In this document: piece after piece, positions 1,360 through 55,103 of the stretch | How the letters are laid out: every line of letters starts with the position of its first letter | How positions within the stretch are numbered: the stretch's first letter is position 1 | IMG/VR virus record: IMGVR_UViG_3300006033_000017 | From: a virus | Taxonomy: Duplodnaviria > Heunggongvirae > Uroviricota > Caudoviricetes | Strand: one strand, 5' to 3' | Length of the DNA: 64,000 bases | Program-made: the position numbers and the translations under genes | Notes under the pieces: generated by a model | The model's input: only the letters and a program-made list of their open reading frames with translations | Databases searched by the model: none | Told to the model about the DNA's origin: nothing

Positions 1360-1881
1360 TTATAGAAAGACAGACTTCACATAGTCCATTACGGTAGTCG
1401 GCAACGCTACTTCTAGGTATTCAATTTCTTCCGCATTCGGGTTGGGGCGTTTCACTAGTTGGCGGATCTTTGTGGAAGAATAGCTGAACCGTGAGGGCAA
1501 CAGAATAGTAGGCAACCCACATCGTGCCCTATTGAAATCGGCAATCTTACGTTCGTATTCATAATCTTCGCTATTACGAACGCCGCGCACCAAAGCATTG
1601 ACGCCGCATTGTACCGCGACATCAACGGTGTATCCCTCATAGGAGAAGACATCATAAATCGAGTCTGATGGGCAATCCGCGAGAATATCCCACCACAGAT
1701 TAATCGTGGTTTCAAAACTCAGTAGTCGTTGCGGCTTCTCTGCATTGACGCCAATACCAACAATGACTTCGGCACCCATTTGCAAACATTGATTCACAAG
1801 GTCAAGATGCCCCTTATGAGGGGGATCGAAAGTGCCAGCATAAAACAGTTTCATTTCAACTCTTCCAGGGATTGTTGTCAA
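1360..1881 (-). CDS. phosphopantetheine adenylyltransferase-like cytidylyltransferase (CoaD-like)
   Basis: N-terminal GTFDPPHKGH (T/HxGH nucleotidyltransferase motif). RGVRNSEDYEYE matches the CoaD RGLRxxxDFEYE signature. C-terminal YSSTKIRQ matches the ISSTxVRE motif. Confidence 0.6.
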   Translation of the reverse strand: MTTIPGRVEMKLFYAGTFDPPHKGHLDLVNQCLQMGAEVIVGIGVNAEKPQRLLSFETTINLWWDILADCPSDSIYDVFSYEGYTVDVAVQCGVNALVRGVRNSEDYEYERKIADFNRARCGLPTILLPSRFSYSSTKIRQLVKRPNPNAEEIEYLEVALPTTVMDYVKSVFL

Positions 1882-2461
1882 ACAATGACGTAAGGGTATC
1901 TACCAAGAGATTAAACTGACTCAACTGATTCTCCAAGTCATCCAAGACAAAACAAGGCATACGGAATCGCTTTAAGCCTTCCTTACTTAGCCCATAGATT
2001 GTCTTGTGGCTTTCAAACTGCATCCCTAGAATCTTCTGTTGGAAAGGGATTGTGCCATCATTGGGGTTAGCGTGCTTTTCTACCTTCAGGCGACCCAATT
2101 CTGCGCTAAGAGGGGCCATCGCGCGGTTACATTGATCACAAATAGATTCAAGGTCTCGAATCAACCCCTCATGTTCTGCCATCAGATGCTCCCGGCGAGC
2201 AACCAGGGGCTTCTGCTGTTTCTTGGCTAACTTACGCTCCTGTTGGAATTGATCAATGTAAGACCATGGGATTACGAAAGGCTCCGAACATACCTCATGA
2301 ACACCATAAGACTTAATGTAATTCGCGCCATCAACAGTAAATCCAACAAATCGATAAGAAACGTTCGAGTCCGAAAGTTGATACGCCCTCCGTACTTCAT
2401 CCATATCCAATTTGTCGTGCAGTTGTTCAATTCTAGCCTGTAGTTTCGTTACTCGCATCAT
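1856..2461 (-). CDS. hypothetical protein (201 aa)
   Basis: ORF; start overlaps upstream stop; no motif. Confidence 0.45.
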   Translation of the reverse strand: MMRVTKLQARIEQLHDKLDMDEVRRAYQLSDSNVSYRFVGFTVDGANYIKSYGVHEVCSEPFVIPWSYIDQFQQERKLAKKQQKPLVARREHLMAEHEGLIRDLESICDQCNRAMAPLSAELGRLKVEKHANPNDGTIPFQQKILGMQFESHKTIYGLSKEGLKRFRMPCFVLDDLENQLSQFNLLVDTLTSLFDNNPWKS

Positions 2462-2857
2462 TTACCTTCTTCCCGCAGCGGGCTTCATCGTTTGGAACTT
2501 AAATCCGATAACGTCTTTCTGACGATCAACTAAAACGAGTACAATACGGGGAACCTTAATGTCCAACAATGGCCCCCGAAGAAGATTCTCGATATTGATG
2601 TTAACACCAGACATCAATAGCCTAAAGACTACATCGTTAATCTTCTGCCCTGGTGGCGTAGCTTCTTCAAGGAGCCAGGGCCACATCTTAATGTAGTTGG
2701 CTATCTCATTAATGACGTGTAGAACATTAGACTCGTGACGGACGTATCCTGTGTCAACTCTTTCGGCACACGCAATGAGCGCCAACATATCTTCACGGTC
2801 TTTAGGGTCCTGAAGTCGCCAAATTCTCCTGATATCAAATTCCATGATTATCCCCAA
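2462..2857 (-). CDS. hypothetical protein (131 aa)
   Basis: ORF abutting neighbours. Confidence 0.45.
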   Translation of the reverse strand: MGIIMEFDIRRIWRLQDPKDREDMLALIACAERVDTGYVRHESNVLHVINEIANYIKMWPWLLEEATPPGQKINDVVFRLLMSGVNINIENLLRGPLLDIKVPRIVLVLVDRQKDVIGFKFQTMKPAAGRR

Positions 2858-26294: not shown

Positions 26295-26473
26295 TTAGGA
26301 TTACCACACACATACCCCATACACTGAGACAGATCTAGTTGGCACTTCGGGCAACGTGCAGGTTGCTTCTCAGTAAGATCGTCTGTAGGGAAGGAAGGAG
26401 GTGGCGTCAAAGGCCGGCGCTGACCTGCGCCCTTTGGGAATACCTCTCTTGCTGTCAATCGAAACTCTGCCAT
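26258..26473 (-). CDS. zinc-ribbon small protein (71 aa)
   Basis: CPKCQ...CGNPKCP; TTGACT-N17-TgcTATCAT promoter upstream. Confidence 0.4.
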   Translation of the reverse strand: MAEFRLTAREVFPKGAGQRRPLTPPPSFPTDDLTEKQPARCPKCQLDLSQCMGYVCGNPKCPIQIQVTCGV

Positions 26474-26568
26474 TTGTCTCTGCTCTCCAACCTAATGATA
26501 GCAGGAACCGTGTCGCAAGTCAAGCCCATTCCAGTTGGCGATATAATGAAATACGAAGGGAGCATATA

Positions 26569-27411
26569 ATGCCTGAACCAGAAGAAATGATGAGTGTTGC
26601 TGATGACTCTACCTCTCTAATCAGCCCCGAGCCCACCCCTATTCCTGTAGGAGCCACTGTTGTCGATATTGGTGCAATGGCAAACAAAGCACCTTCCGTG
26701 ATGTCTCTTGGTACCTATGATGACATTGGATTATCATTCACCAAAAGCACTATTGGAGCCTATATCACAAAAACCCCATTATCAAGGAAAGTGTGGATGA
26801 CTGTGTTGCATAACTCAGCTACTCCCGCCATGTATGATAAGGGCCTAGAAACCGTCAAGTCATTCAATAGCTACCATATCAACACTAACGGTTGGAAATG
26901 TATCGGCTATCATTGGGTGATTTCAACAGATGGAACCATTTATGCGGGCCGAAAGATGGAACTAACAGGAGCACATGCCGGAACTTATGGAAACCCAGGT
27001 TCTATTGGTGTTTGTCTCGTTGGTAATATCGAAGGTTCCGATAAAGTGACGCAGGCTCAGAAGGAATCGCTCGCTGCCCTACACTATGCTTTACACAAGA
27101 CATATTACGATGGGGCTGCGCCGAACATTAAGTTCCACAACGACAAAGATTTCCATATGAATACCGGCTGCCCTGGTAAAATCACTGTACCAGAAGTCAT
27201 GGACTGGGTTAACAAGTATGGAAGTCCTGGTATGGATAAGGGGACCGCGACAGAACCTTTAGTATATGTCAATGGGACAAAGATTGGCAAAGGCAAAATC
27301 TTTGAGGACTCGACATATATGAAAGTCAGGGACTTTGAGAAGGCGAACTTCGCCGTTATCTACAAAGGCGCACCCGACTTCACCGTCAACATCGTTGGCC
27401 CCAAAGTATAA
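26569..27411 (+). CDS. endolysin: N-acetylmuramoyl-L-alanine amidase (Amidase_2/PGRP domain) with a C-terminal wall-binding region
   Basis: GAAGGGAG RBS; GYHWVIS...GAHAG...NTGCPG zinc-amidase motifs. Confidence 0.75.
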   Translation: MPEPEEMMSVADDSTSLISPEPTPIPVGATVVDIGAMANKAPSVMSLGTYDDIGLSFTKSTIGAYITKTPLSRKVWMTVLHNSATPAMYDKGLETVKSFNSYHINTNGWKCIGYHWVISTDGTIYAGRKMELTGAHAGTYGNPGSIGVCLVGNIEGSDKVTQAQKESLAALHYALHKTYYDGAAPNIKFHNDKDFHMNTGCPGKITVPEVMDWVNKYGSPGMDKGTATEPLVYVNGTKIGKGKIFEDSTYMKVRDFEKANFAVIYKGAPDFTVNIVGPKV

Positions 27412-27488: not shown

Positions 27489-27707
27489 TTACCACTCATC
27501 ACGGTGCTCCTGTAATACCTTGATTGCTAACTTGCATCTCTGAATTGCTTCGGTAATAACCTCATCGGTCGCTTCTTCACGATACTTGTGTAGGACTGAG
27601 GCAACACAACCCTTTAACTCGGCTTCACCTATCTTGTAGAGGGAACGAGTTCCCATCGGTGCTAATTCTTGCATCATATAATACGCAAGCTTCATTGATG
27701 TCATCAT
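27489..27707 (-). CDS. hypothetical protein (72 aa)
   Basis: ORF overlapping the Thg1-like gene stop. Confidence 0.35.
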   Translation of the reverse strand: MMTSMKLAYYMMQELAPMGTRSLYKIGEAELKGCVASVLHKYREEATDEVITEAIQRCKLAIKVLQEHRDEW

Positions 27708-28471
27708 ACTTCTGCCTTCAGAATTGGCTCCGCGCCACGGAATACAACATCTTCCCTATTCGCGATGCGAGTCATAATAGGAATTGATAGTTGATGATAT
27801 TCTGAGCGTTGATATGTTTCACCAGTATCAGCTTTAGTGTGAAAAACTGGTACCTTCCTGAAATACGCACCACGCTTCAAGTGATCCGCATAATCATTCC
27901 AGTTAATGCCCTTCTGAAAGATCATCTCCTGAAGAGCATCGCATTTCTTGCCCTGCAACGCAGAGTGACTATAGAGACTCTGCGCAACCATCAAGATACT
28001 GTTGCGAACCGCATCGACTTCACGCCAGATCAAGGCGTTAGTGGCTTCATATTCAGTTGGGACGCTCCATACACGGCAATCAAACAAAGGGTTCAAATGC
28101 GCTTTCTTGGGAAGATAGGTCGGCAGTTGCTTGTTAAAGAAAACCGACGCCATACTTGCTAACAAAGAAGTCATCTTGGCAACACGACCATCAAAGAAGA
28201 TCTTGCGCTCAAAATCATCCTGTTGCCAAATTAGCGTAATTTCATCAGATTGTGTGTAAGAAATAACAGCATGAGTTTCTTTCACAAGATACTTAGCCGT
28301 TTCATGCATCAATTGCCGCAAATCATCATCAAATGGGCGCGCAAGGCCGCGACAAAATGAGTGAAATGCCTTACCATCTAGACGTGCCATGGCGGGCGCG
28401 AGCGGCATGAGTCGCGCTTGCGGGCCACAGTACAGGTTCTCATAGTATTTCATTCTATCCGACAGATCCAT
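27704..28471 (-). CDS. Thg1-like protein (tRNA-His guanylyltransferase family; 3'-5' nucleotidyltransferase)
   Basis: MARLDGKAFHSF ... ISYTQSDEITLIW aligns to the Thg1 catalytic core RLDGRNFHRF / AYGQSDEYSF; colinear similarity over the whole length. Confidence 0.8.
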   Translation of the reverse strand: MDLSDRMKYYENLYCGPQARLMPLAPAMARLDGKAFHSFCRGLARPFDDDLRQLMHETAKYLVKETHAVISYTQSDEITLIWQQDDFERKIFFDGRVAKMTSLLASMASVFFNKQLPTYLPKKAHLNPLFDCRVWSVPTEYEATNALIWREVDAVRNSILMVAQSLYSHSALQGKKCDALQEMIFQKGINWNDYADHLKRGAYFRKVPVFHTKADTGETYQRSEYHQLSIPIMTRIANREDVVFRGAEPILKAEV

Positions 28472-34645: not shown

Positions 34646-35845
34646 CTAAGCATTTTGCAATGTCTCGAATATCCGCGAATCTATAGGTTTGAAACCGGCA
34701 CCGTAAGGTCCGGTAAGGAATCGATTCAAAATATTCTTACTCGCGTTTGTATCCGCATTGTCTCCATGACCACAACTGAGACACAAGAACACCTCTCCGT
34801 TTCGATTCCTCTTATCGACATGACCACATAGCGGACAGGTGATACTGGTATTATAACACGAAACGGTTCTGAAGGAAACACGGTTTTCTTCACACCCCAT
34901 TTGTACCCGGTCTAACCAATATCGCCATACCCAACTGCCGATAACTCGACGCATACTTTTAGAGAGGCGTCGTCTCTCCTTTGCCTTATGGTTCAGATTA
35001 GATAACTTCTCCACAACCACAAGATCAATACTTTTATTAGTTACGATCTGCCTCGTAACTTCGTCTATTCGTTGTTTCAAGGCCCTACGAGCTTTCTTTT
35101 GGCCTTTCGATCCCTGATTACAACGATTGACTCTGTTCACACAATCTTTAATATCTCTACCTAATTGCTCTCCAGTAGAGAATGAAGCCAAAGCATTAAT
35201 CCCAGAGTCTATACCGATAGCATTGAGCCCCGTTTTCTTTGGACCAGTTTCAATCTCGAAACAGAACTGAACACTATCTCTGGTGATAATGTAGCTATTC
35301 AGTCTTGTTCCCAATTGATTCCATTTGTTGAAATGCTTGTGTTTTTTAATCGGAAGATCCATCACAATCTTATTGCCAATTGAAGCTAGATGCAACCAAG
35401 AATCAAATTCTGATGCTGCCTTTGAAGCCACTAACTTAGCAATGTTACAATTGGCGCAAATTCTATCTCCTTTGTGTGTCGGCTTAACGGGCTTGATTGT
35501 TTCTGCTTTTTGTCTTAATTGATTGGCCTTAACTTCGTATTTAGCTCTTTCTGCTTTGGCTAATAATCGTTTTTTCTCATTTTTGGCTTTCTCTTGAGAA
35601 GAATTAATCAGATCAATAGCTTCTCTTGCACAGACCTTTCTCATTCTATGAGAAAACCAAGAATCAGGGAGGTTGATTATATCTTTGAGCAAGTCTGCTT
35701 TTGTCGGGCATTTATCTAGTGCCCAGAAAGAATCAATGAAGATATTGCAGAGTCTTCCGTATTCGATCAACACAATGCTAAGCTCCTCTCTCTTTTTTAA
35801 GGTCGAGAATTTAAGGGTACATTGTGTTGACCGAATGATTTTCAC
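34646..35845 (-). CDS. tnpB: TnpB (IS605 OrfB-family RuvC-like, putative RNA-guided nuclease)
   Basis: RuvC-I GIDSGINALA, RuvC-II VVVEKLSN, zinc finger CPLCGH...CLSCGH, RuvC-III DNADTNASKNI; N-terminus MKIIRSTQCTLKF is typical. Confidence 0.8.
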   Translation of the reverse strand: MKIIRSTQCTLKFSTLKKREELSIVLIEYGRLCNIFIDSFWALDKCPTKADLLKDIINLPDSWFSHRMRKVCAREAIDLINSSQEKAKNEKKRLLAKAERAKYEVKANQLRQKAETIKPVKPTHKGDRICANCNIAKLVASKAASEFDSWLHLASIGNKIVMDLPIKKHKHFNKWNQLGTRLNSYIITRDSVQFCFEIETGPKKTGLNAIGIDSGINALASFSTGEQLGRDIKDCVNRVNRCNQGSKGQKKARRALKQRIDEVTRQIVTNKSIDLVVVEKLSNLNHKAKERRRLSKSMRRVIGSWVWRYWLDRVQMGCEENRVSFRTVSCYNTSITCPLCGHVDKRNRNGEVFLCLSCGHGDNADTNASKNILNRFLTGPYGAGFKPIDSRIFETLQNA

Positions 35846-50538: not shown

Positions 50539-51222
50539 CTAAATCGCCCAGGAGGGGGCTTGTTCCCCATCCATGACCACAGCGAGCTTACACTCATACA
50601 GGGTAATCTTAGGCTCATCCTTCTTAGGCGCACCGCGAGACACGAGATGATCCTTAACAACAGTCCAACCACCCTCGGGGTGATTAAGCCACTTAGATAC
50701 ATAGGCCATGACACTCATGTCGCTATGAATACCAGTGTATACGGCTACTTCTTCCTGAAGACCAGCAAGAGTAATGCCAGGATTTGCGGCAAGAATACCG
50801 AAAACCATATCCTGCTTAGTGCCCTCATTGAAGCCCGAACCAAAAGCAATAGGATAACCAGCAAAGACCAAGCGCTTCTTGTGCTTTTCGGCTTCCTTTT
50901 CCTTAGGAACGTCTACACTGATTACTTCAATGGTGGCATCCTCAGTAACCGGCAGTTCTTCCTTAACAGGTCGAGCAGGTAGCCCCTGAGCAATACGCCG
51001 CGCTTCAATGGCGCGGGTTACATGCTCAATATGAGCAATACTACCCTCACAGGCGTAGCTACAGTAACCATCAATGAGAACGCCAAAATGATTACCCTTG
51101 GGCTTCTCAAGACAGAAACGACAGAATCCACCCGATTGCCAATTTGTAGTCTTCGCTTCAATAGCAGAAACGGGCACCCATTCGATGATCTTACCAGTTG
51201 GCTCATGAATAAAGGTCGGCAT
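50539..51222 (-). CDS. hypothetical protein (~227 aa from MPTFIHEP)
   Basis: the track ORF's first 17 codons are the promoter TTGACA...TATAAT read from a TTG; Cys/His-rich segment. Confidence 0.45.
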   Translation of the reverse strand: MPTFIHEPTGKIIEWVPVSAIEAKTTNWQSGGFCRFCLEKPKGNHFGVLIDGYCSYACEGSIAHIEHVTRAIEARRIAQGLPARPVKEELPVTEDATIEVISVDVPKEKEAEKHKKRLVFAGYPIAFGSGFNEGTKQDMVFGILAANPGITLAGLQEEVAVYTGIHSDMSVMAYVSKWLNHPEGGWTVVKDHLVSRGAPKKDEPKITLYECKLAVVMDGEQAPSWAI

Positions 51223-51244: not shown

Positions 51245-51273
51245 ATTATAGCACGTCGTGAGCCGCTTGTCAA
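51245..51273 (-). promoter_or_regulatory. sigma70-like promoter TTGACA-N17-TgcTATAAT + AAGGGTAG
   Basis: minus-strand cgagTTGACAagcggctcacgacgtgcTATAATaagggtag. Confidence 0.55.
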
Positions 51274-51689
51274 CTCGTAATTGGCCCACCACGCATGGGT
51301 TTATTGAATAAATCAAGTAGCCATGAGCATTTATAGGTATTGTTAGCTTGGCAAATGACTCGTTCCGCAAAATACCAAGACCATAGCTCTAGGTCGTAAT
51401 ATGCCGTTCCGCCATTAGGATGAAGGCAAATACCGATATCTGGCTGCGTAAATATCTTGCATTTGATACAATTTACGGTATCATCTTCATTCACTTTTAA
51501 CTCAACATCCACACAACAGTACCGTTCTTGAAGTAGCAGGCCACCATCTTTAATGCCCTGATTGATTTCGAATAGAATTTTGCAATTCGACCCAAAGTGA
51601 GCGTTACCATTAAGAAAGGTAGCCACTTCAGCGGCGATAACTCTTGCCTTCTTTAATCTTGCTTCATAATCTACCATATCAGTCACCAT
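51270..51689 (-). CDS. hypothetical Cys-rich protein (139 aa)
   Basis: ORF. Confidence 0.4.
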   Translation of the reverse strand: MVTDMVDYEARLKKARVIAAEVATFLNGNAHFGSNCKILFEINQGIKDGGLLLQERYCCVDVELKVNEDDTVNCIKCKIFTQPDIGICLHPNGGTAYYDLELWSWYFAERVICQANNTYKCSWLLDLFNKPMRGGPITS

Positions 51690-52248
51690 ATAGATTGTTA
51701 TCTAAAATATAGTGCATAAGCTCAGGACATTCATGATACATCAAGGCTGCCTTGAGTCTATCATTCTCTAGGGGTGGAATCTCAGTCTTAAACTGTTCTC
51801 TAATCCATGTACTATGCTCACCAATATCGGGCACGGAGAAGATATTCACGGAAGCACACAATCGCTCCGCACGAAACCAGTGTTGTAGATTAAACAATGT
51901 ATCAGAACCAATAATTAGAACTAGATTATCCCTACTAAGATTCTCATGGATGTGATAGTGTTGCACCAAGTCATAGGTGTTCTGAATATCAAAATCCCTC
52001 TCCACACTATTAACAAAAGCCCGAGCATGACAACATTTGTGTAAGAGATTAGTCATATGAAATCGGTGTTCATATGACACATTAGAGGTTTTCAATGGTT
52101 GCCTATTTGTTGGCGTAATACCAATCGAAAAATCACTGGAACGCTTACCATAGCCATTAAATGCAGCAGCAGCAGTATGTAATGCTCTAAGATGACCAAG
52201 ATGTGGTGGGTCAAACATTCCGCCATAAAGCCCAAAACTAACCATCAC
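51679..52248 (-). CDS. nicotinate/nicotinamide mononucleotide adenylyltransferase-like (NadD/NMNAT family)
   Basis: GGMFDPPHLGH (GxFxPxHxGH) and C-terminal HSTWIRE (SxTxxR) motifs. Confidence 0.6.
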   Translation of the reverse strand: MMVSFGLYGGMFDPPHLGHLRALHTAAAAFNGYGKRSSDFSIGITPTNRQPLKTSNVSYEHRFHMTNLLHKCCHARAFVNSVERDFDIQNTYDLVQHYHIHENLSRDNLVLIIGSDTLFNLQHWFRAERLCASVNIFSVPDIGEHSTWIREQFKTEIPPLENDRLKAALMYHECPELMHYILDNNLYGD

Positions 52249-52310: not shown

Positions 52311-53213
52311 CTACTGCGTAGGTGCCGGCATCTGAATCATAGGTGTTGCACCACCTACGACCATTGGTTGCTTGCCGTCCCACTTCTCAATAGCAGCCTT
52401 CTGATTCTGAATGCGCTGCCAGTCCACCATGATAGAAGTCAGGCTATTAGTCAACAGAGCGTTAGCCTTCGCCTGACCCTCAGCTTTAACGCGCGCAGAT
52501 TCCGCCTCACCGCGAGCCGACTCAATTTGCTGAGTTGCTACAGCCTTAGTCTCACGGATCTTATTCTCTGCGGCAACAGCCTTGTTGGTCGCGGTAATTG
52601 CGGCAACAATTGACTCCGAAACCTGAGAATCTAGGCGCAGGTCAGAAACAAAACTCACCATGTTAACCTGGAAGCCATCCGCACCTAGACGAGTACTTAG
52701 ATCGTCAGTTACCTGCTTCAGTAGCTCGGCTTTACCTTCACCATAGATCTTTACAATCGGCATCTTCGATGCATGACGACTCAGAGAATCGCGAACCTGA
52801 GAACGCAGATAAACATTCGAGATACCAGTGATATCCTGACGGAACTTCTTGAGGATCGACGGCACCTTGGCTGAATCCAAAGTAAAGGCCAGGGAAACAT
52901 CAACACGGACCAATGCACCCTCAACAGAGTTGAAAGCCATACTCTCATCAACGGGCGCACCTTCATGGGCACTTGCGGTCCAGTTGATCGTCTTCATAAA
53001 GGTCGGGTAACGATAAAGAATGGTAGTCAAAGGATTGTAGAATACGCGACCAGTAACAACTGGCATGTTATTCACACCCTTATTCCCGCCATACATATTG
53101 ACCTTAACGCCAACCCACCCCGGCTCAATCACCGAGGAGCAGAAAAGCAACACACCCAGAGGCATCAACAGAATCACCACTAGTGCGGCGATGATACCAA
53201 TTCGCTTTGTCAT
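52311..53213 (-). CDS. SPFH/band-7 (stomatin/prohibitin/HflKC-like) membrane protein
   Basis: N-terminal TM helix; SPFH-like core; Ala/Glu/Gln-rich coiled coil (AESARVKAEGQAKA). Confidence 0.65.
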   Translation of the reverse strand: MTKRIGIIAALVVILLMPLGVLLFCSSVIEPGWVGVKVNMYGGNKGVNNMPVVTGRVFYNPLTTILYRYPTFMKTINWTASAHEGAPVDESMAFNSVEGALVRVDVSLAFTLDSAKVPSILKKFRQDITGISNVYLRSQVRDSLSRHASKMPIVKIYGEGKAELLKQVTDDLSTRLGADGFQVNMVSFVSDLRLDSQVSESIVAAITATNKAVAAENKIRETKAVATQQIESARGEAESARVKAEGQAKANALLTNSLTSIMVDWQRIQNQKAAIEKWDGKQPMVVGGATPMIQMPAPTQ

Positions 53214-53426
53214 TTACTTCTCACCTTCTTGTTTATTGACATTCCTTAGGAAGAAATGCCAAATCTCTGTAACTATGACTGAAACTGTTAAAATGACTAG
53301 CCCAATACCTTTGATTACACCAAGGTCCGACGGCTCGCTCAACATCTCTGCGGCTTTAGTCCACACAAAGCACAACGAGAACAGGGCGGTCAAAAGGATG
53401 ATACTTAGACCGAATATCCTTTTCAT
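53214..53426 (-). CDS. small 2-TM membrane protein adjacent to the SPFH gene (NfeD-like partner?)
   Basis: two hydrophobic helices; directly follows the SPFH gene. Confidence 0.4.
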   Translation of the reverse strand: MKRIFGLSIILLTALFSLCFVWTKAAEMLSEPSDLGVIKGIGLVILTVSVIVTEIWHFFLRNVNKQEGEK

Positions 53427-53435
53427 TACCTACTC

Positions 53436-53645
53436 CTATTCTGTATAGTTAAAATGACCAAGCTCATTCAAATCCTTCAAGGCTTGACGAATGAGATCGG
53501 TATATTCGTTCTCAATTTGCTCAGTAAAAGCATGAGCGGCTGCCCATACACAACGCATAGAGGGCAACATCTCGCTTTTACCTATCAATGCGTATGTGGC
53601 CTCAGATAGAGACGCCTCAGTATACTTCATGAAATTTCCTCCCAC
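53436..53645 (-). CDS. hypothetical protein (69 aa)
   Basis: ORF. Confidence 0.3.
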   Translation of the reverse strand: MGGNFMKYTEASLSEATYALIGKSEMLPSMRCVWAAAHAFTEQIENEYTDLIRQALKDLNELGHFNYTE

Positions 53646-53952: not shown

Positions 53953-54231
53953 CTAATTCATTTCATCTCGCAAGGTAGAAGCACCAAATTCCCGCAACGC
54001 GGCTTCGAATTCTTCTGCATCTTCTTGCGTAATCGCACCAAACTTTACACGGTCCTTAACCGACGCTGCCATATCAAGGATTTCATCAGGATCACTATAG
54101 ACCTTTGGTACCGGCAAATTGCACTTGGGGCACACAAAGATGATAGCAATATCGGGACCATCATTCTGAACAACTTGCGAAGCGTGTTCAGCATACAATG
54201 GCTCACCACAGGAACAATTGATTTCAGACAT
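53953..54231 (-). CDS. zinc-ribbon protein (92 aa)
   Basis: CSCGE...CPKCN; start overlaps the ATPase stop (TGATG). Confidence 0.45.
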   Translation of the reverse strand: MSEINCSCGEPLYAEHASQVVQNDGPDIAIIFVCPKCNLPVPKVYSDPDEILDMAASVKDRVKFGAITQEDAEEFEAALREFGASTLRDEMN

Positions 54232-55103
54232 TATCTCGTACCTCTAAGTTGATCGATCTTATCCCGCGCGGCATCGACGGTTTTCTTGGCTTCTTCCATT
54301 AGACTAATAGCATCTGCCATGTAATTATAGAAAGCACAGCGTGCCTCTTTAGCATATCCTGCATGGATGTCAATGATGTTAAAAGCCAGATTGCCAGCCA
54401 ACAAAGGCAGAACTGAGTGCGTAGATACAATCACTTGACATTGTTCTGCCAATGTCGGAATGAAGTTCTGCCAGAACTTCGTTTGTAGCGGCACCTCAAA
54501 CCAATTATCAGGCTCATCCAATAGTACCGTAACTTTACCAGTAGAGTTGAGACTCTTGATGTAGTCAACCTGATCTTGAATTTTGTGTTGACCAACAGGC
54601 TCTTTATACTTGGCTAGCATATCTTCCCAAACGATGGGTTTCTCAATAGCAGCATTCAACCTCGCGAGTCGATATAGGTTGATTTGACCCTCACTCATTT
54701 GATTGGCGTTAACCTGATCCACCATACCGGAAACGCCATCAAGAGAGCCATTGTCGCTATCCATGAAGTAGCCAACATGCTTGATGTTGATTGTTCCATC
54801 ATAGAAGAAGGTAGGCGTACCGTCCCAATCAATTTCAGCAATACAACCATGAGATGCCTTTCGCTCAAGCATTTCGGCGACTGTATTACCACGATGAGGA
54901 GTCAAAGAGCCCCAGCCTGCCTCATTCACAGAAACATCAATGAAGCATCGAGCAGCCATCATCTTTAGGAGGGTCGTTTTACCACAACCATTAGGTCCCC
55001 ATAGGATATTAGGCATTGAAGTAGAGAACTCAATCACCCGACCATCTTTCAGATCAGGTAGCTCGGCGGCGTATCCAGAAATTGTCTTAACAGATCGAAT
55101 CAT
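54231..55103 (-). CDS. compact ABC-type ATPase (AAA_21/RecF-like)
   Basis: Walker A GPNGCGKTTLL, signature-like MSEGQ, Walker B VLLDEPD, H-loop STHS. Confidence 0.7.
   Translation of the reverse strand: MIRSVKTISGYAAELPDLKDGRVIEFSTSMPNILWGPNGCGKTTLLKMMAARCFIDVSVNEAGWGSLTPHRGNTVAEMLERKASHGCIAEIDWDGTPTFFYDGTINIKHVGYFMDSDNGSLDGVSGMVDQVNANQMSEGQINLYRLARLNAAIEKPIVWEDMLAKYKEPVGQHKIQDQVDYIKSLNSTGKVTVLLDEPDNWFEVPLQTKFWQNFIPTLAEQCQVIVSTHSVLPLLAGNLAFNIIDIHAGYAKEARCAFYNYMADAISLMEEAKKTVDAARDKIDQLRGTR

Follow-up and report, generated by a model that had tools for sequence, protein, structure and literature searches.

What would a tailed phage gain from a membrane protein of the SPFH family, and what is the small membrane protein encoded at its side? 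Many phage genome papers mention SPFH/prohibitin genes as curiosities without a role, and the role of the phage proteins is called 'poorly understood' or 'unclear' (PMC7760394, PMC13239085). Our literature search for functional studies of phage SPFH proteins returned remarks in genome descriptions only, and no paper was found that treats the phage SPFH protein and its small neighbour as a pair, or that gives a function for the phage copies. The locus considered here lies in a stretch of 64,000 nucleotides from a caudoviricete record of IMG/VR, referred to below as the window. The reading that we favour, with a probability of roughly 0.42, is that the two genes form a coupled membrane cassette of a two-helix hairpin and an SPFH protein, the latter building an outward-facing ring or cage that would enclose the hairpin and control access to membrane proteins in the manner of FtsH regulators.

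Both open reading frames reported by the initial annotation, which was made from the letters of the window alone, were recovered on the minus strand at exactly the same coordinates (Table 1), and separate gene calls on the source contig, a metagenome contig of 157 kb in ENA, gave the identical two genes. Their order had been misread: the small gene was said to follow the SPFH gene, but it lies upstream and is transcribed first, its TAA standing directly before the SPFH ATG. The resulting TAAATG joins stop to start and, with a Shine-Dalgarno-like site inside the end of the hairpin gene, has the layout that would be expected of translational coupling. Abutting or overlapping hairpin-SPFH junctions are the rule among related loci. 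Each of these loci has one SPFH gene, and no second SPFH ORF was found in the window. A lone SPFH gene runs against the parallel with the heteromers HflK+HflC and PHB1+PHB2. A Pfam search of ten neighbouring ORFs gave zero matches, and a megablast search with the surrounding 4 kb found no match in 50,697 phage records, so that the locus has no close cultured relative. Synteny of a neighbouring NMNAT-like gene with another locus (L007) was considered and rejected, the HxGH nucleotidyltransferase motif being all that the two have in common.

Table 1. Positions of the hairpin-SPFH pair, its parts and the endolysin-like gene in the window
Feature	Position	Strand	Basis or remark
Gene 1, two-TM hairpin protein, 70 aa	53214..53426	-	ORF, gene call, TM segments, family HMM
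Gene 2, SPFH/Band-7 protein, 300 aa, prohibitin/HflK type	52311..53213	-	PF01145, phrog_200, PDB profile, Foldseek
Shine-Dalgarno-like AGGAG, 6 nt before hairpin ATG	53433..53437	-	Sequence reading
Gene junction	53211..53228	-	SD-like GAAGGTGAG within the end of gene 1; TAA 53216-53214 abuts ATG 53213-53211
Hairpin loop motif M28-L-S-E-P-S-D34	53325..53345	-	Alignment; family consensus
N-terminal membrane anchor, SPFH residues 2-24, up to Cys25	53142..53210	-	AF2 helix; non-canonical lipobox LLF/C
SPFH core, residues 28-218, begins PGWVGVKVN	52560..53132	-	Pfam match; alignment conservation
Long C-terminal helices 196-257 (62 residues) and 260-277, putative coiled-coil 'wall'	52383..52628	-	AF2; contain AEGQAKANALL
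Endolysin-like gene (amidase), the only one found in the window	26401..27411	+	25 kb from the pair

The product of the second gene is an SPFH/Band-7 protein which, by profile and by fold, is nearest to prohibitin and HflK and not to stomatin or flotillin. The initial annotation had made its reading hinge on an SPFH profile match, and PF01145 (Band_7/SPFH) does match residues 28-218 with 67.7 bits (cutoff 23.6, E=1.8e-18); phrog_200, the SPFH 'lipoprotein' family, matches at E=1.5e-60. Single-sequence phmmer against the PDB gave nothing, and a profile search succeeded, with prohibitin 1 (E=1.8e-10), prohibitin 2 (9e-8), HflK (8e-7) and QmcA (1.1e-3). Foldseek concurs with the HflK/C-prohibitin type proposed at the outset. 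The top match of the AF2 model is 7wi3_A; HflK/C of the FtsH-HflKC cage lead (E about 3e-10), and prohibitin, erlin and stomatin are further full-length matches. The model (pLDDT 76) consists of a helix at 2-24, strands and helices at 27-188, and helices at 196-257 and 260-277; the block-mean pLDDT of this C-terminal part is mostly 83-94 at 196-250 and 65-72 at 251-280. Hydropathy, PF01145 and AF2 thus bear out the N-terminal TM helix, the SPFH core and the AEGQAKANALL helix of the first description. In alignments, PGWVGVKVN is the best-conserved stretch of the family, and a conserved KWDGKxP motif, with W278 and G280 invariant, sits after the long helices. The highest identity of the protein to any deposited phage protein is 40%. 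NCBIfam matched neither this protein nor the hairpin.

Two stretches of the 70-residue product of the first gene are hydrophobic, residues 3-26 and residues 34-60. The protein is recognised with 29.9 bits (E=1.7e-7) by a profile HMM for which 29 hairpins from elsewhere were used, and it is the sole match among 510 six-frame ORFs of the window. None of 1000 shuffles that preserved its hydropathy segments reached this score, the maximum being 20.8 bits; together with the significance of the SPFH match, this places the two assignments far beyond chance. The window hairpin matches no Pfam family above cutoff and no PHROG, and phrog_1130 ('membrane protein') matches 8 of 25 aligned hairpins (best 1.4e-26). 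Since phmmer against 1.84 billion representative proteins recovered the query only, the family is visible solely through profiles and gene context. Its members have 51-95 residues, with two TM helices filling most of the length, and share the loop consensus [LF][ILVM][NST]x[PKAH][SDN][DST], after which comes a Gly that hardly varies (G40 in the window protein). Taken over all members, the loop is acidic (D+E 25, K+R 3) and the N-tail basic (K+R 28, D+E 4), and the topology is predicted to be N-in, loop-out and C-in.

The initial annotation had likened the two genes to an SPFH-NfeD pair, and this comparison stands in one respect and fails in another. The small protein is a dedicated membrane partner in one operon with the SPFH gene, given the TAAATG junction and the conserved adjacency, but homology to NfeD did not hold up. 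Were the small gene a short NfeD homolog in a stomatin-NfeD operon of the canonical type, this would explain a co-operonic, small, membrane-embedded partner such as that of SPFH-NfeD pairs (PMC2636767, PMC13086221), where this partner is thought to aid assembly. PF01957, however, matches neither the window hairpin nor 24 of its relatives at E<=0.01, and an OB fold would not fit into 51-95 residues that already contain two TM helices. QmcA, of the QmcA-YbbJ pair, is also a far weaker match to the SPFH protein than prohibitin or HflK. The SPFH-NfeD operons known (QmcA-YbbJ, 8z5g; PH1511-PH1510; FloA/FloT-NfeD) resemble the locus in having a co-transcribed small membrane partner, and differ in its OB fold, in gene order and in complexes that face the cytoplasm. 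The SPFH4/SPFH3 (prohibitin/HflK) group, in contrast, has been described as being without an NfeD partner and proposed to face the periplasm (PMC2636767). We regard an NfeD operon as a very remote prospect, and the likeness of the hairpin to NfeD as at most functional.

The breadth of the pairing is what establishes the hairpin as a true, dedicated partner of the SPFH protein. Of the first 600 candidates from IMG/VR, 458 proved to be relatives. In viruses, the hairpin HMM finds a match in 71 of 80 IMG/VR loci, and in 38 of 44 lineages, where the hairpin gene immediately precedes the SPFH gene. In bacteria it matches 43 of 80 loci, a lower bound given the additional weak hairpins visible by eye; 42 of these hairpins either immediately precede the SPFH protein or are fused with it, and the remaining one is encoded on the same strand 875 nt before it. 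No hairpin was found in six of the 44 lineages of viruses or in about a third of the loci from bacteria, which counts against the reading that we favour. At least 12 in-frame hairpin-SPFH fusions were found with the HMM (P0005, P0020, L049, L067, L072, L096, L098, L103, L116, L117, L132 and L135), and in the AF2 model of the first of them the SPFH domain comes after three TM helices. No third gene recurs beside the pair among the 44 lineages. On the autonomy of the cassette, this absence can be set beside the pair of phage K, which is flanked by annotated terminators.

Among deposited genomes, the same two families (phrog_200/phrog_1130) occur in the same order and with the tight junction in Shigella phage Moo19 (homologs of gp19/gp20 of coliphage N4), Burkholderia phage phi1026b (gp49/gp48), Klebsiella phage KNP2 (gp103/gp105) and a Stx2a prophage; the window proteins are very divergent from all of these. 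The hairpin HMM matches ProddE gp009, KNP2 gp103 and the N4 gp19-like gp30 protein of Moo19, as well as unannotated ORFs in a Stx2a phage and a crAss-like phage. The pair stands between the DNA polymerase and exonuclease genes in ProddE, between the cI region and xis/int in the Stx phage, and within a series of small genes on one strand right after RNA polymerase 2 in Moo19; it thus occupies early, middle or moron-type regions of phage genomes. SPFH proteins had been called uncommon in phages, which is contradicted by homologs in 700 of 50,697 phage records, across many phage groups, and by the existence of phrog_200. The window pair is an ordinary member of a cassette common in phages, prophages and bacteria.

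The side of the membrane on which the SPFH domain lies has to be read from sequence features. The N-terminus of the window protein is basic (MTKR) ahead of its TM helix, and a lipobox-like xx[GAS]C precedes the conserved PGxVG in 34 of 44 viral lineages, with the window Cys25 aligning to the lipobox Cys of its homologs. Among the fusions a three-TM topology is found throughout. The SPFH domain is accordingly predicted to be on the non-cytoplasmic side. How the window protein is anchored is uncertain, because its lipobox, LLFC, is non-canonical. Most of the lipobox-bearing relatives lack an Asp at +2, and a candidate relative, the Pasteurella prophage SPFH protein PM0222, has been reported in outer-membrane vesicles (PMC9872710). 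Some members may therefore be outer-membrane proteins, which would be a misfit with an inner-membrane cage.

A two-helix hairpin with predicted N-in/C-in topology also invites comparison with holins. The suggestion that the pair might modulate lysis timing can be phrased as a class II holin- or antiholin-like hairpin that the SPFH protein organises or restrains; the size of the hairpin, its two TM helices, its predicted topology and its charged C-tail fit class II holins. The SPFH pair of Kayvirus, phages of Gram-positive hosts (MbpS/MbpV; phage K gp197/gp196), adjoins endolysin and holin genes, and MbpV has been called holin-like (PMC7150955). This pair resembles the window locus in combining an SPFH protein with a small upstream membrane protein, between terminators (PMC7150955). 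It differs in its place beside lysis genes, in MbpV, which has one TM helix and a charged coil, does not match the hairpin profile and is outside the hairpin family, and in MbpS, which is 24% identical to the window SPFH protein. That MbpV is no member of the family also counts against the reading that we favour. The remaining evidence is against a lysis function: none of 25 hairpins matches a holin PHROG, whereas eight match phrog_1130; the endolysin-like gene of the window is 25 kb away on the opposite strand; no lysis gene recurs beside the pair in 44 lineages; and the pair turns up both in housekeeping surroundings in bacteria and beside the immunity and integration genes of prophages. A holin covalently fused to a large exported scaffold would also be odd. 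A role in lysis, as first proposed, is thus not borne out, and we consider it improbable.

The closest parallels are with HflK/C and the prohibitins. HflK/C of Escherichia coli have an N-terminal TM helix and periplasmic SPFH domains with coiled coils that form a cage round FtsH (PMC12005517). They (PDB 7wi3, 7vhq, 9cz2) share with the window protein the anchor, the non-cytoplasmic SPFH domain, predicted in our case, the long helix and a C-terminal cap, and are linked to phage biology through the turnover of lambda CII (PMC12005517). They differ in being encoded by two SPFH genes against one, in having no hairpin partner, in their low identity (about 20% in structural alignment) and in being TM-anchored, whereas most relatives of the window protein are predicted from their lipobox to be lipoproteins. 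Prohibitins PHB1/PHB2 provide the best PDB profile match, through prohibitin 1, and the depositors of ProddE place its homolog in CDD SPFH_prohibitin. The window protein would be homo-oligomeric and is borne by a mobile element, in contrast to the PHB1/PHB2 heteromer. For the bacterial p-prohibitins (SPFH4, Hinderhofer et al. 2009) no operon partner has been described, whereas the family studied here has a hairpin, sometimes fused.

In the reading that we prefer, the hairpin would sit in the cytoplasmic membrane with both ends in the cytoplasm and its short acidic loop in the periplasm. The SPFH protein would be held in the same membrane by its N-terminal helix, most of its relatives being probably lipid-anchored instead, with its SPFH domain and long helices outside the cytoplasm. 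On the model of HflK/C and prohibitin, it would probably oligomerise with itself through the long helices and the KWDGKxP tail; the resulting ring or cage would lie on the inner membrane, on its outer face, and fence off the membrane patch holding the hairpin. The hairpin would then be a stoichiometric partner, probably in direct contact with the SPFH protein, and the counterpart of NfeD in the inward-facing stomatin and flotillin types. For the phage, the cassette would supply an accessory function in the host membrane, expressed from a non-structural region. This function may be control over which inner-membrane proteins come within reach of an FtsH-type quality-control protease, as is exerted by HflK/C, the link of the pair to FtsH being an analogy drawn solely from HflK/C and prohibitin. 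More generally, the cassette may stabilise the membrane of the infected cell.

An outward-facing layer could also serve as a barrier. In this alternative, a periplasmic SPFH layer and the hairpin would keep other phages, or membrane effectors of host abortive infection, from bringing in DNA or damaging the envelope, the pair being made early or from a prophage, as with T4 Imm/Sp. The predicted periplasmic location of the SPFH protein agrees with such a role, and so do the accessory, early or moron-type positions of the pair and its presence in prophages beside immunity or integration genes; the gene two places upstream of it in Moo19 carries the annotation superinfection exclusion. A version of the pair is carried by 536 of 5,426 complete E. 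coli genomes (about 10%), on chromosomes and plasmids, which is typical of accessory cargo of mobile elements. The candidate relative PM0222, moreover, is produced and exported by a prophage-carrying Pasteurella strain (PMC9872710). The closest relatives of the window SPFH protein (56-58% identity), however, are encoded on a bacterial chromosome among respiratory-chain and cobalt-transport genes, and no phage-like genes were seen on their available flanks. The membrane-associated defence that had been suggested for the pair finds no echo in PADLOC, none of whose families matches either protein. We know of no experimental precedent for an SPFH protein that acts in exclusion. Exclusion or envelope protection thus appears unlikely, though better placed than lysis.

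The same bacterial relatives raise the question of whether the phage copies need a specific task at all. The pair could be a cellular module for membrane stress or microdomains, with no specific client, that mobile elements have acquired repeatedly and that adds modestly to the robustness of the membrane during infection. The 113 confirmed relatives found in contigs taken as one genome per species, on bacterial chromosomes of many phyla, are in line with this. The module and its flanks differ in GC content, in the window (0.48 vs 0.44) as well as in an Armatimonadetes MAG (0.64 vs 0.68), consistent with repeated transfer. Deletion of SPFH genes in bacteria usually has a mild phenotype (PMC13086221, PMC12005517). 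The pair is, on the other hand, kept in compact lytic phages, such as the T7-like ProddE (42.6 kb) and Bruynoghevirus (45 kb), and its retention in diverse genomes of this kind argues for a function selected during infection. Likewise, the loop motif, which is specific and conserved, and the fusions speak for a defined complex over a generic scaffold. Housekeeping cargo without a client is for these reasons an explanation to which we give little credence, on a level with exclusion. The Armatimonadetes MAG was also considered as a clue to the host of the phage and rejected, its GC of 0.68 being set against 0.44 for the window.

The main gain from this analysis is that the SPFH gene is nearly always in a fixed pair with a specific and often unannotated hairpin, which makes a curiosity of genome descriptions into a defined complex open to testing. 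Tractable versions exist in E. coli, namely N4 gp19/gp20 and the prophage or plasmid copy of about 10% of complete genomes. If the pair does cage FtsH or shield the inner membrane, it would represent a new class of phage function in host takeover or exclusion, and the bacterial p-prohibitins would gain their missing partner; if it is mere membrane housekeeping cargo, the finding is an ordinary one. A wider proposal, which we advance tentatively and consider doubtful, is that bacteria, plasmids and a very wide range of phages share the pair as a two-component module, ancient and so far unrecognised, which would be the periplasmic-side counterpart of SPFH-NfeD. In phages, its cage might capture a client of the host, for which FtsH is the most plausible candidate, or close the membrane to superinfection or to effectors of abortive infection, as a general device of host takeover or counter-defence. 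The phages that this proposal would embrace include large uncultivated ones such as the present phage, Vequintavirinae, and N4-like, Stx, crAss-like and T7-like phages.

The only SPFH gene in the window is the second gene of a two-gene unit, transcribed after a small gene whose product contains two hydrophobic segments (the hairpin). Independent gene calls on the 157,149-bp ENA metagenome contig containing the window recovered both genes identically, and the ORFs lie exactly where the initial annotation had placed them; the small gene, described there as immediately following the SPFH gene, is actually 5' of it in the direction of transcription. As read from the sequence, the TAA stop of the hairpin gene (53216-53214) directly abuts the ATG of the SPFH gene, an SD-like GAAGGTGAG lies within the 3' end of the hairpin gene ahead of the SPFH start, and a separate AGGAG precedes the ATG of the hairpin gene by 6 nt. 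The pair is embedded in a long run of small same-strand genes, most of them without a database match. Other genes in the window encode a DNA methyltransferase, a metallophosphoesterase, an amidase/endolysin, a transposase and a Thg1-like tRNA-His guanylyltransferase, the last though no tRNA genes were found in the window. No close DNA relative of the locus was found among 50,697 deposited phage genomes, and the region looks like an accessory part of a large uncultivated phage.

Features of the window and of two related phage loci, with the evidence for each
Feature	Sequence	Coordinates	Strand	Evidence
Hairpin gene, 70 aa	window	53426..53214	-	ORF and independent gene call
SPFH gene, 300 aa	window	53213..52311	-	ORF and independent gene call
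NMNAT/NadD-like nucleotidyltransferase	window	51679-52248	-	CTP_transf_like, 1.1e-10
Perfect sigma-70 consensus promoter	window	51245-51273	-	TTGACA, 17 nt, TATAAT, TG upstream; 12/12 matches
AAA_21 ATPase, 290 aa	window	54231-55103	-	PADLOC AriA, 1.5e-10
Transposase-like ORF	window	34646-35845	-	phrog_506, E=5e-22
Thg1-like gene	window	27704-28471	-	phrog_4717, E=3e-76
Unannotated hairpin ORF	L176, phage Stx2_EH1910 (LC567834.1)	2283-2471		hairpin HMM, E=3e-8
Unannotated hairpin ORF	L179, phage cr106_1 (NC_055871.1)	1774-1959		hairpin HMM, E=1.3e-5

The 300-aa protein matches Pfam Band_7/SPFH over residues 28-218 (E=1.8e-18; 67.7 bits, the cutoff being 23.6) and phrog_200 (E=1.5e-60). In its AlphaFold2 model (mean pLDDT 76) an N-terminal helix spans residues 2-24 and the SPFH core follows; behind it come a helix of 62 residues (196-257), which includes AEGQAKANALL, and a second one (260-277). 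Foldseek against the PDB ranked HflK/HflC of the FtsH-HflKC cage first, followed by human prohibitin, erlin and stomatin, all over the full length, and the family sequence profile matched prohibitin 1 (1.8e-10), prohibitin 2 and HflK, with a weak match to QmcA. Given this ranking and these profile matches, the protein is a prohibitin/HflK-type SPFH protein, and both the SPFH/Band-7 identity and the HflK/C or prohibitin type proposed initially are borne out; the outcome that would have refuted the proposal, absence of any SPFH profile match, did not occur.

The suggestion that such proteins are uncommon in phages was wrong, because tblastn detected homologs in 700 of the 50,697 phage records (with at least 80% of the protein covered in 691), of the first 600 IMG/VR pattern candidates 458 were confirmed as relatives, and phage SPFH genes have been noted before, in papers that either call their role unknown or speculate about it (PMC1524935, PMC7760394, PMC13239085, PMC7150955, PMC10269572, PMC4936722). 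Homologs occur in Vequintavirinae, Bruynoghevirus, N4-like Schitoviridae, Stx-converting and Burkholderia temperate phages, phiCbK-like and crAss-like phages, Lak megaphages, Kayvirus and large Bacillus phages. No deposited phage protein exceeds 40% identity to the window protein, and the best tblastn match, at 40%, is in the T7-like Desulfovibrio phage ProddE. In GenBank phage records the homologs are often mislabelled as 'serine protease', 'transposase', 'RIIB lysis inhibitor' or 'DNA polymerase I'; the first label may, we presume, stem from HflK/C having formerly been thought a protease.

For the hairpin protein no Pfam family scored above cutoff, and PHROG, NCBIfam and PADLOC gave no match; compared pairwise with 1.84 billion representative proteins, it found only itself. 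The closest SPFH relatives (56-58% identical), which come from an Armatimonadetes MAG and have Rieske/cytochrome b and CbiMQO genes as neighbours, carry directly 5' a two-TM ORF of 60-80 aa with a common loop motif (VWTKAAEMLSEPSD in the window, VWSRCAELINAPSD in the MAG), as do phages ProddE, RpAliso, phi1026b and KNP2. A hairpin HMM was built, leaving the window out, from 29 non-identical hairpins lying upstream of the SPFH gene in IMG/VR loci, and run against 5,200 six-frame ORFs. It matched the window hairpin (E=1.7e-7) and no other of the 510 window ORFs, and every match among the 5,200 lay just 5' of an SPFH gene or within an SPFH ORF. The score of 29.9 bits compares with a mean of 2.4 and a maximum of 20.8 in 1000 shuffles that kept the TM and loop segments. 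The profile recognised 71 of 80 IMG/VR loci, or 38 of 44 lineages (defined at ~80% identity), and 43 of 80 loci in bacterial genomes, where 42 hairpins are immediately 5' or fused and one lies 875 nt 5' on the same strand; further weak bacterial cases can be recognised by eye. It also found the homolog of N4 gp19 in Shigella phage Moo19, located 5' of the N4 gp20-like SPFH gene, and 12 natural in-frame fusions in the order hairpin-SPFH, one of which, P0005, has three TM helices ahead of the SPFH domain in its model. Two hairpin ORFs previously unannotated, in an Stx2a-converting and a crAss-like phage, overlap the SPFH start codon.

The initial annotation had compared this arrangement to an NfeD pairing. 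A small, conserved membrane partner is indeed present, but descent from NfeD is rejected: of 25 aligned hairpins 8 match phrog_1130 ('membrane protein') and none matches PF01957 or a holin family, and two TM helices fill their 51-95 aa, so that there is no space for the NfeD OB fold. A true NfeD operon is thus very improbable.

When all neighbouring ORFs were clustered across the 44 lineages, no third gene recurred beside the pair, which behaves as an autonomous two-gene cassette. It lies between annotated terminators in phage K, between DNA polymerase and exonuclease in ProddE, between the cI region and xis/int in the Stx2a phage, and with ParB and integrase on another element (P0020). The proposed control of lysis timing is disfavoured by context and family tests, given that the sole endolysin-like gene found in the window lies on the opposite strand at a distance of 25 kb and no aligned hairpin matches a holin family; we regard it as quite unlikely. 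In Moo19 the pair is two genes 3' of a gene annotated superinfection exclusion, and a function in such exclusion or in envelope protection is somewhat less remote, at odds similar to those of generic membrane housekeeping cargo. Of 5,426 complete E. coli genomes, 536 carry the pair in its Stx-phage form, at 419 chromosomal and 199 plasmid places (618 altogether); the plasmids may be phage-plasmids, and PGAP labels the pair 'SPFH domain-containing protein' and 'hypothetical protein'. Module GC departs from its surroundings in opposite directions (0.64 in a 0.68 genome for the Armatimonadetes MAG loci L003/L006, 0.48 in the 0.44 phage), consistent with horizontal acquisition at both. In two deltaproteobacterial MAGs (L100, L104) the pair is directly 3' of a multi-pass protein with 9 TM segments that looked, by eye, RodA/FtsW (SEDS)-like; if so, the context would be chromosomal and cell-envelope related, not prophage.

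A lipobox-like xx[GAS]C is found in 34 of 44 viral lineages immediately ahead of PGxVG[IV]KV, the most conserved stretch of the SPFH family, hence the database name 'lipoprotein' and the predicted non-cytoplasmic placement of the SPFH domain. In the window protein the aligned Cys is retained, though in a non-canonical LLF|C, and the protein is more probably anchored by an uncleaved helix, like HflK/C. Hairpin N-tails are basic (K+R 28, D+E 4), loops acidic (3, 25) and C-tails again richer in basic residues (63 vs 46), from which an N-in, loop-out, C-in topology is predicted; the fusions agree, with hairpin, cytoplasmic linker, third TM helix and exported SPFH domain. Conservation within the pair is highest in the hairpin loop and where the SPFH core begins, and since both would sit on the outer face of the inner membrane, it is reasonable to suppose that they are in contact there.

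Prohibitins play with the mitochondrial m-AAA protease a role equivalent to that of HflK/C with FtsH. HflK/C, with an N-terminal TM helix, periplasmic SPFH domains and coiled coils, form a cage around FtsH and are thought to regulate substrate access to it (PMC12005517). Bacterial 'p-prohibitins' (SPFH4) lack an NfeD partner and have been proposed to face the periplasm (PMC2636767). The best-supported reading is therefore an assembly, which we consider likely, in which the SPFH protein would form a homo-oligomeric ring or cage that faces outward from the inner membrane, and the hairpin would be the membrane partner dedicated to it. As the favoured role in infection, we infer that it might modulate FtsH-type membrane-protein quality control; assembly and role together are given a probability of about 0.42. 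Several points count against this model. The pair here has a single SPFH gene; the lipobox of the window protein is non-canonical, and Asp at +2 is missing in most lipobox-bearing relatives. Moreover, the Pasteurella prophage SPFH protein PM0222, a candidate relative only, was reported in outer-membrane vesicles (PMC9872710), and in Kayvirus the SPFH partner differs, having one TM segment instead of two.

Both families already have catalogue entries (phrog_200 and phrog_1130) and have had members in GenBank for years, such as N4 gp19/gp20, which the Moo19 record cites, and the window pair is, judged by its sequence, a divergent member of them. No description of the fixed hairpin-SPFH partnership or of the fusions was found in the literature searched. 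The partnership offers a modest lead, yet a useful one, since it delimits a complex open to testing and tractable versions of it exist in E. coli.

Other genes of the window deserve mention. The NMNAT-like gene, 62 nt 3' of the SPFH gene, scores 62 bits with TIGR00482, far under the 112-bit cutoff, and might be a phage NAD-salvage gene; it has the HxGH motif alone in common with a CTP_transf_like gene near the homologous pair in L007. The AAA_21 ATPase resembles AriA and PtuA and lies inside the phage gene run, with no recognisable nuclease or effector partner beside it. The transposase-like ORF, which adjoins a 429-aa phrog_2319 protein, may be an insertion sequence in the phage genome. The sigma-70 promoter is located inside the same-strand run that holds the pair, 3' of the NMNAT-like gene and a 139-aa gene and shortly ahead of the gene at 50539..~51222.
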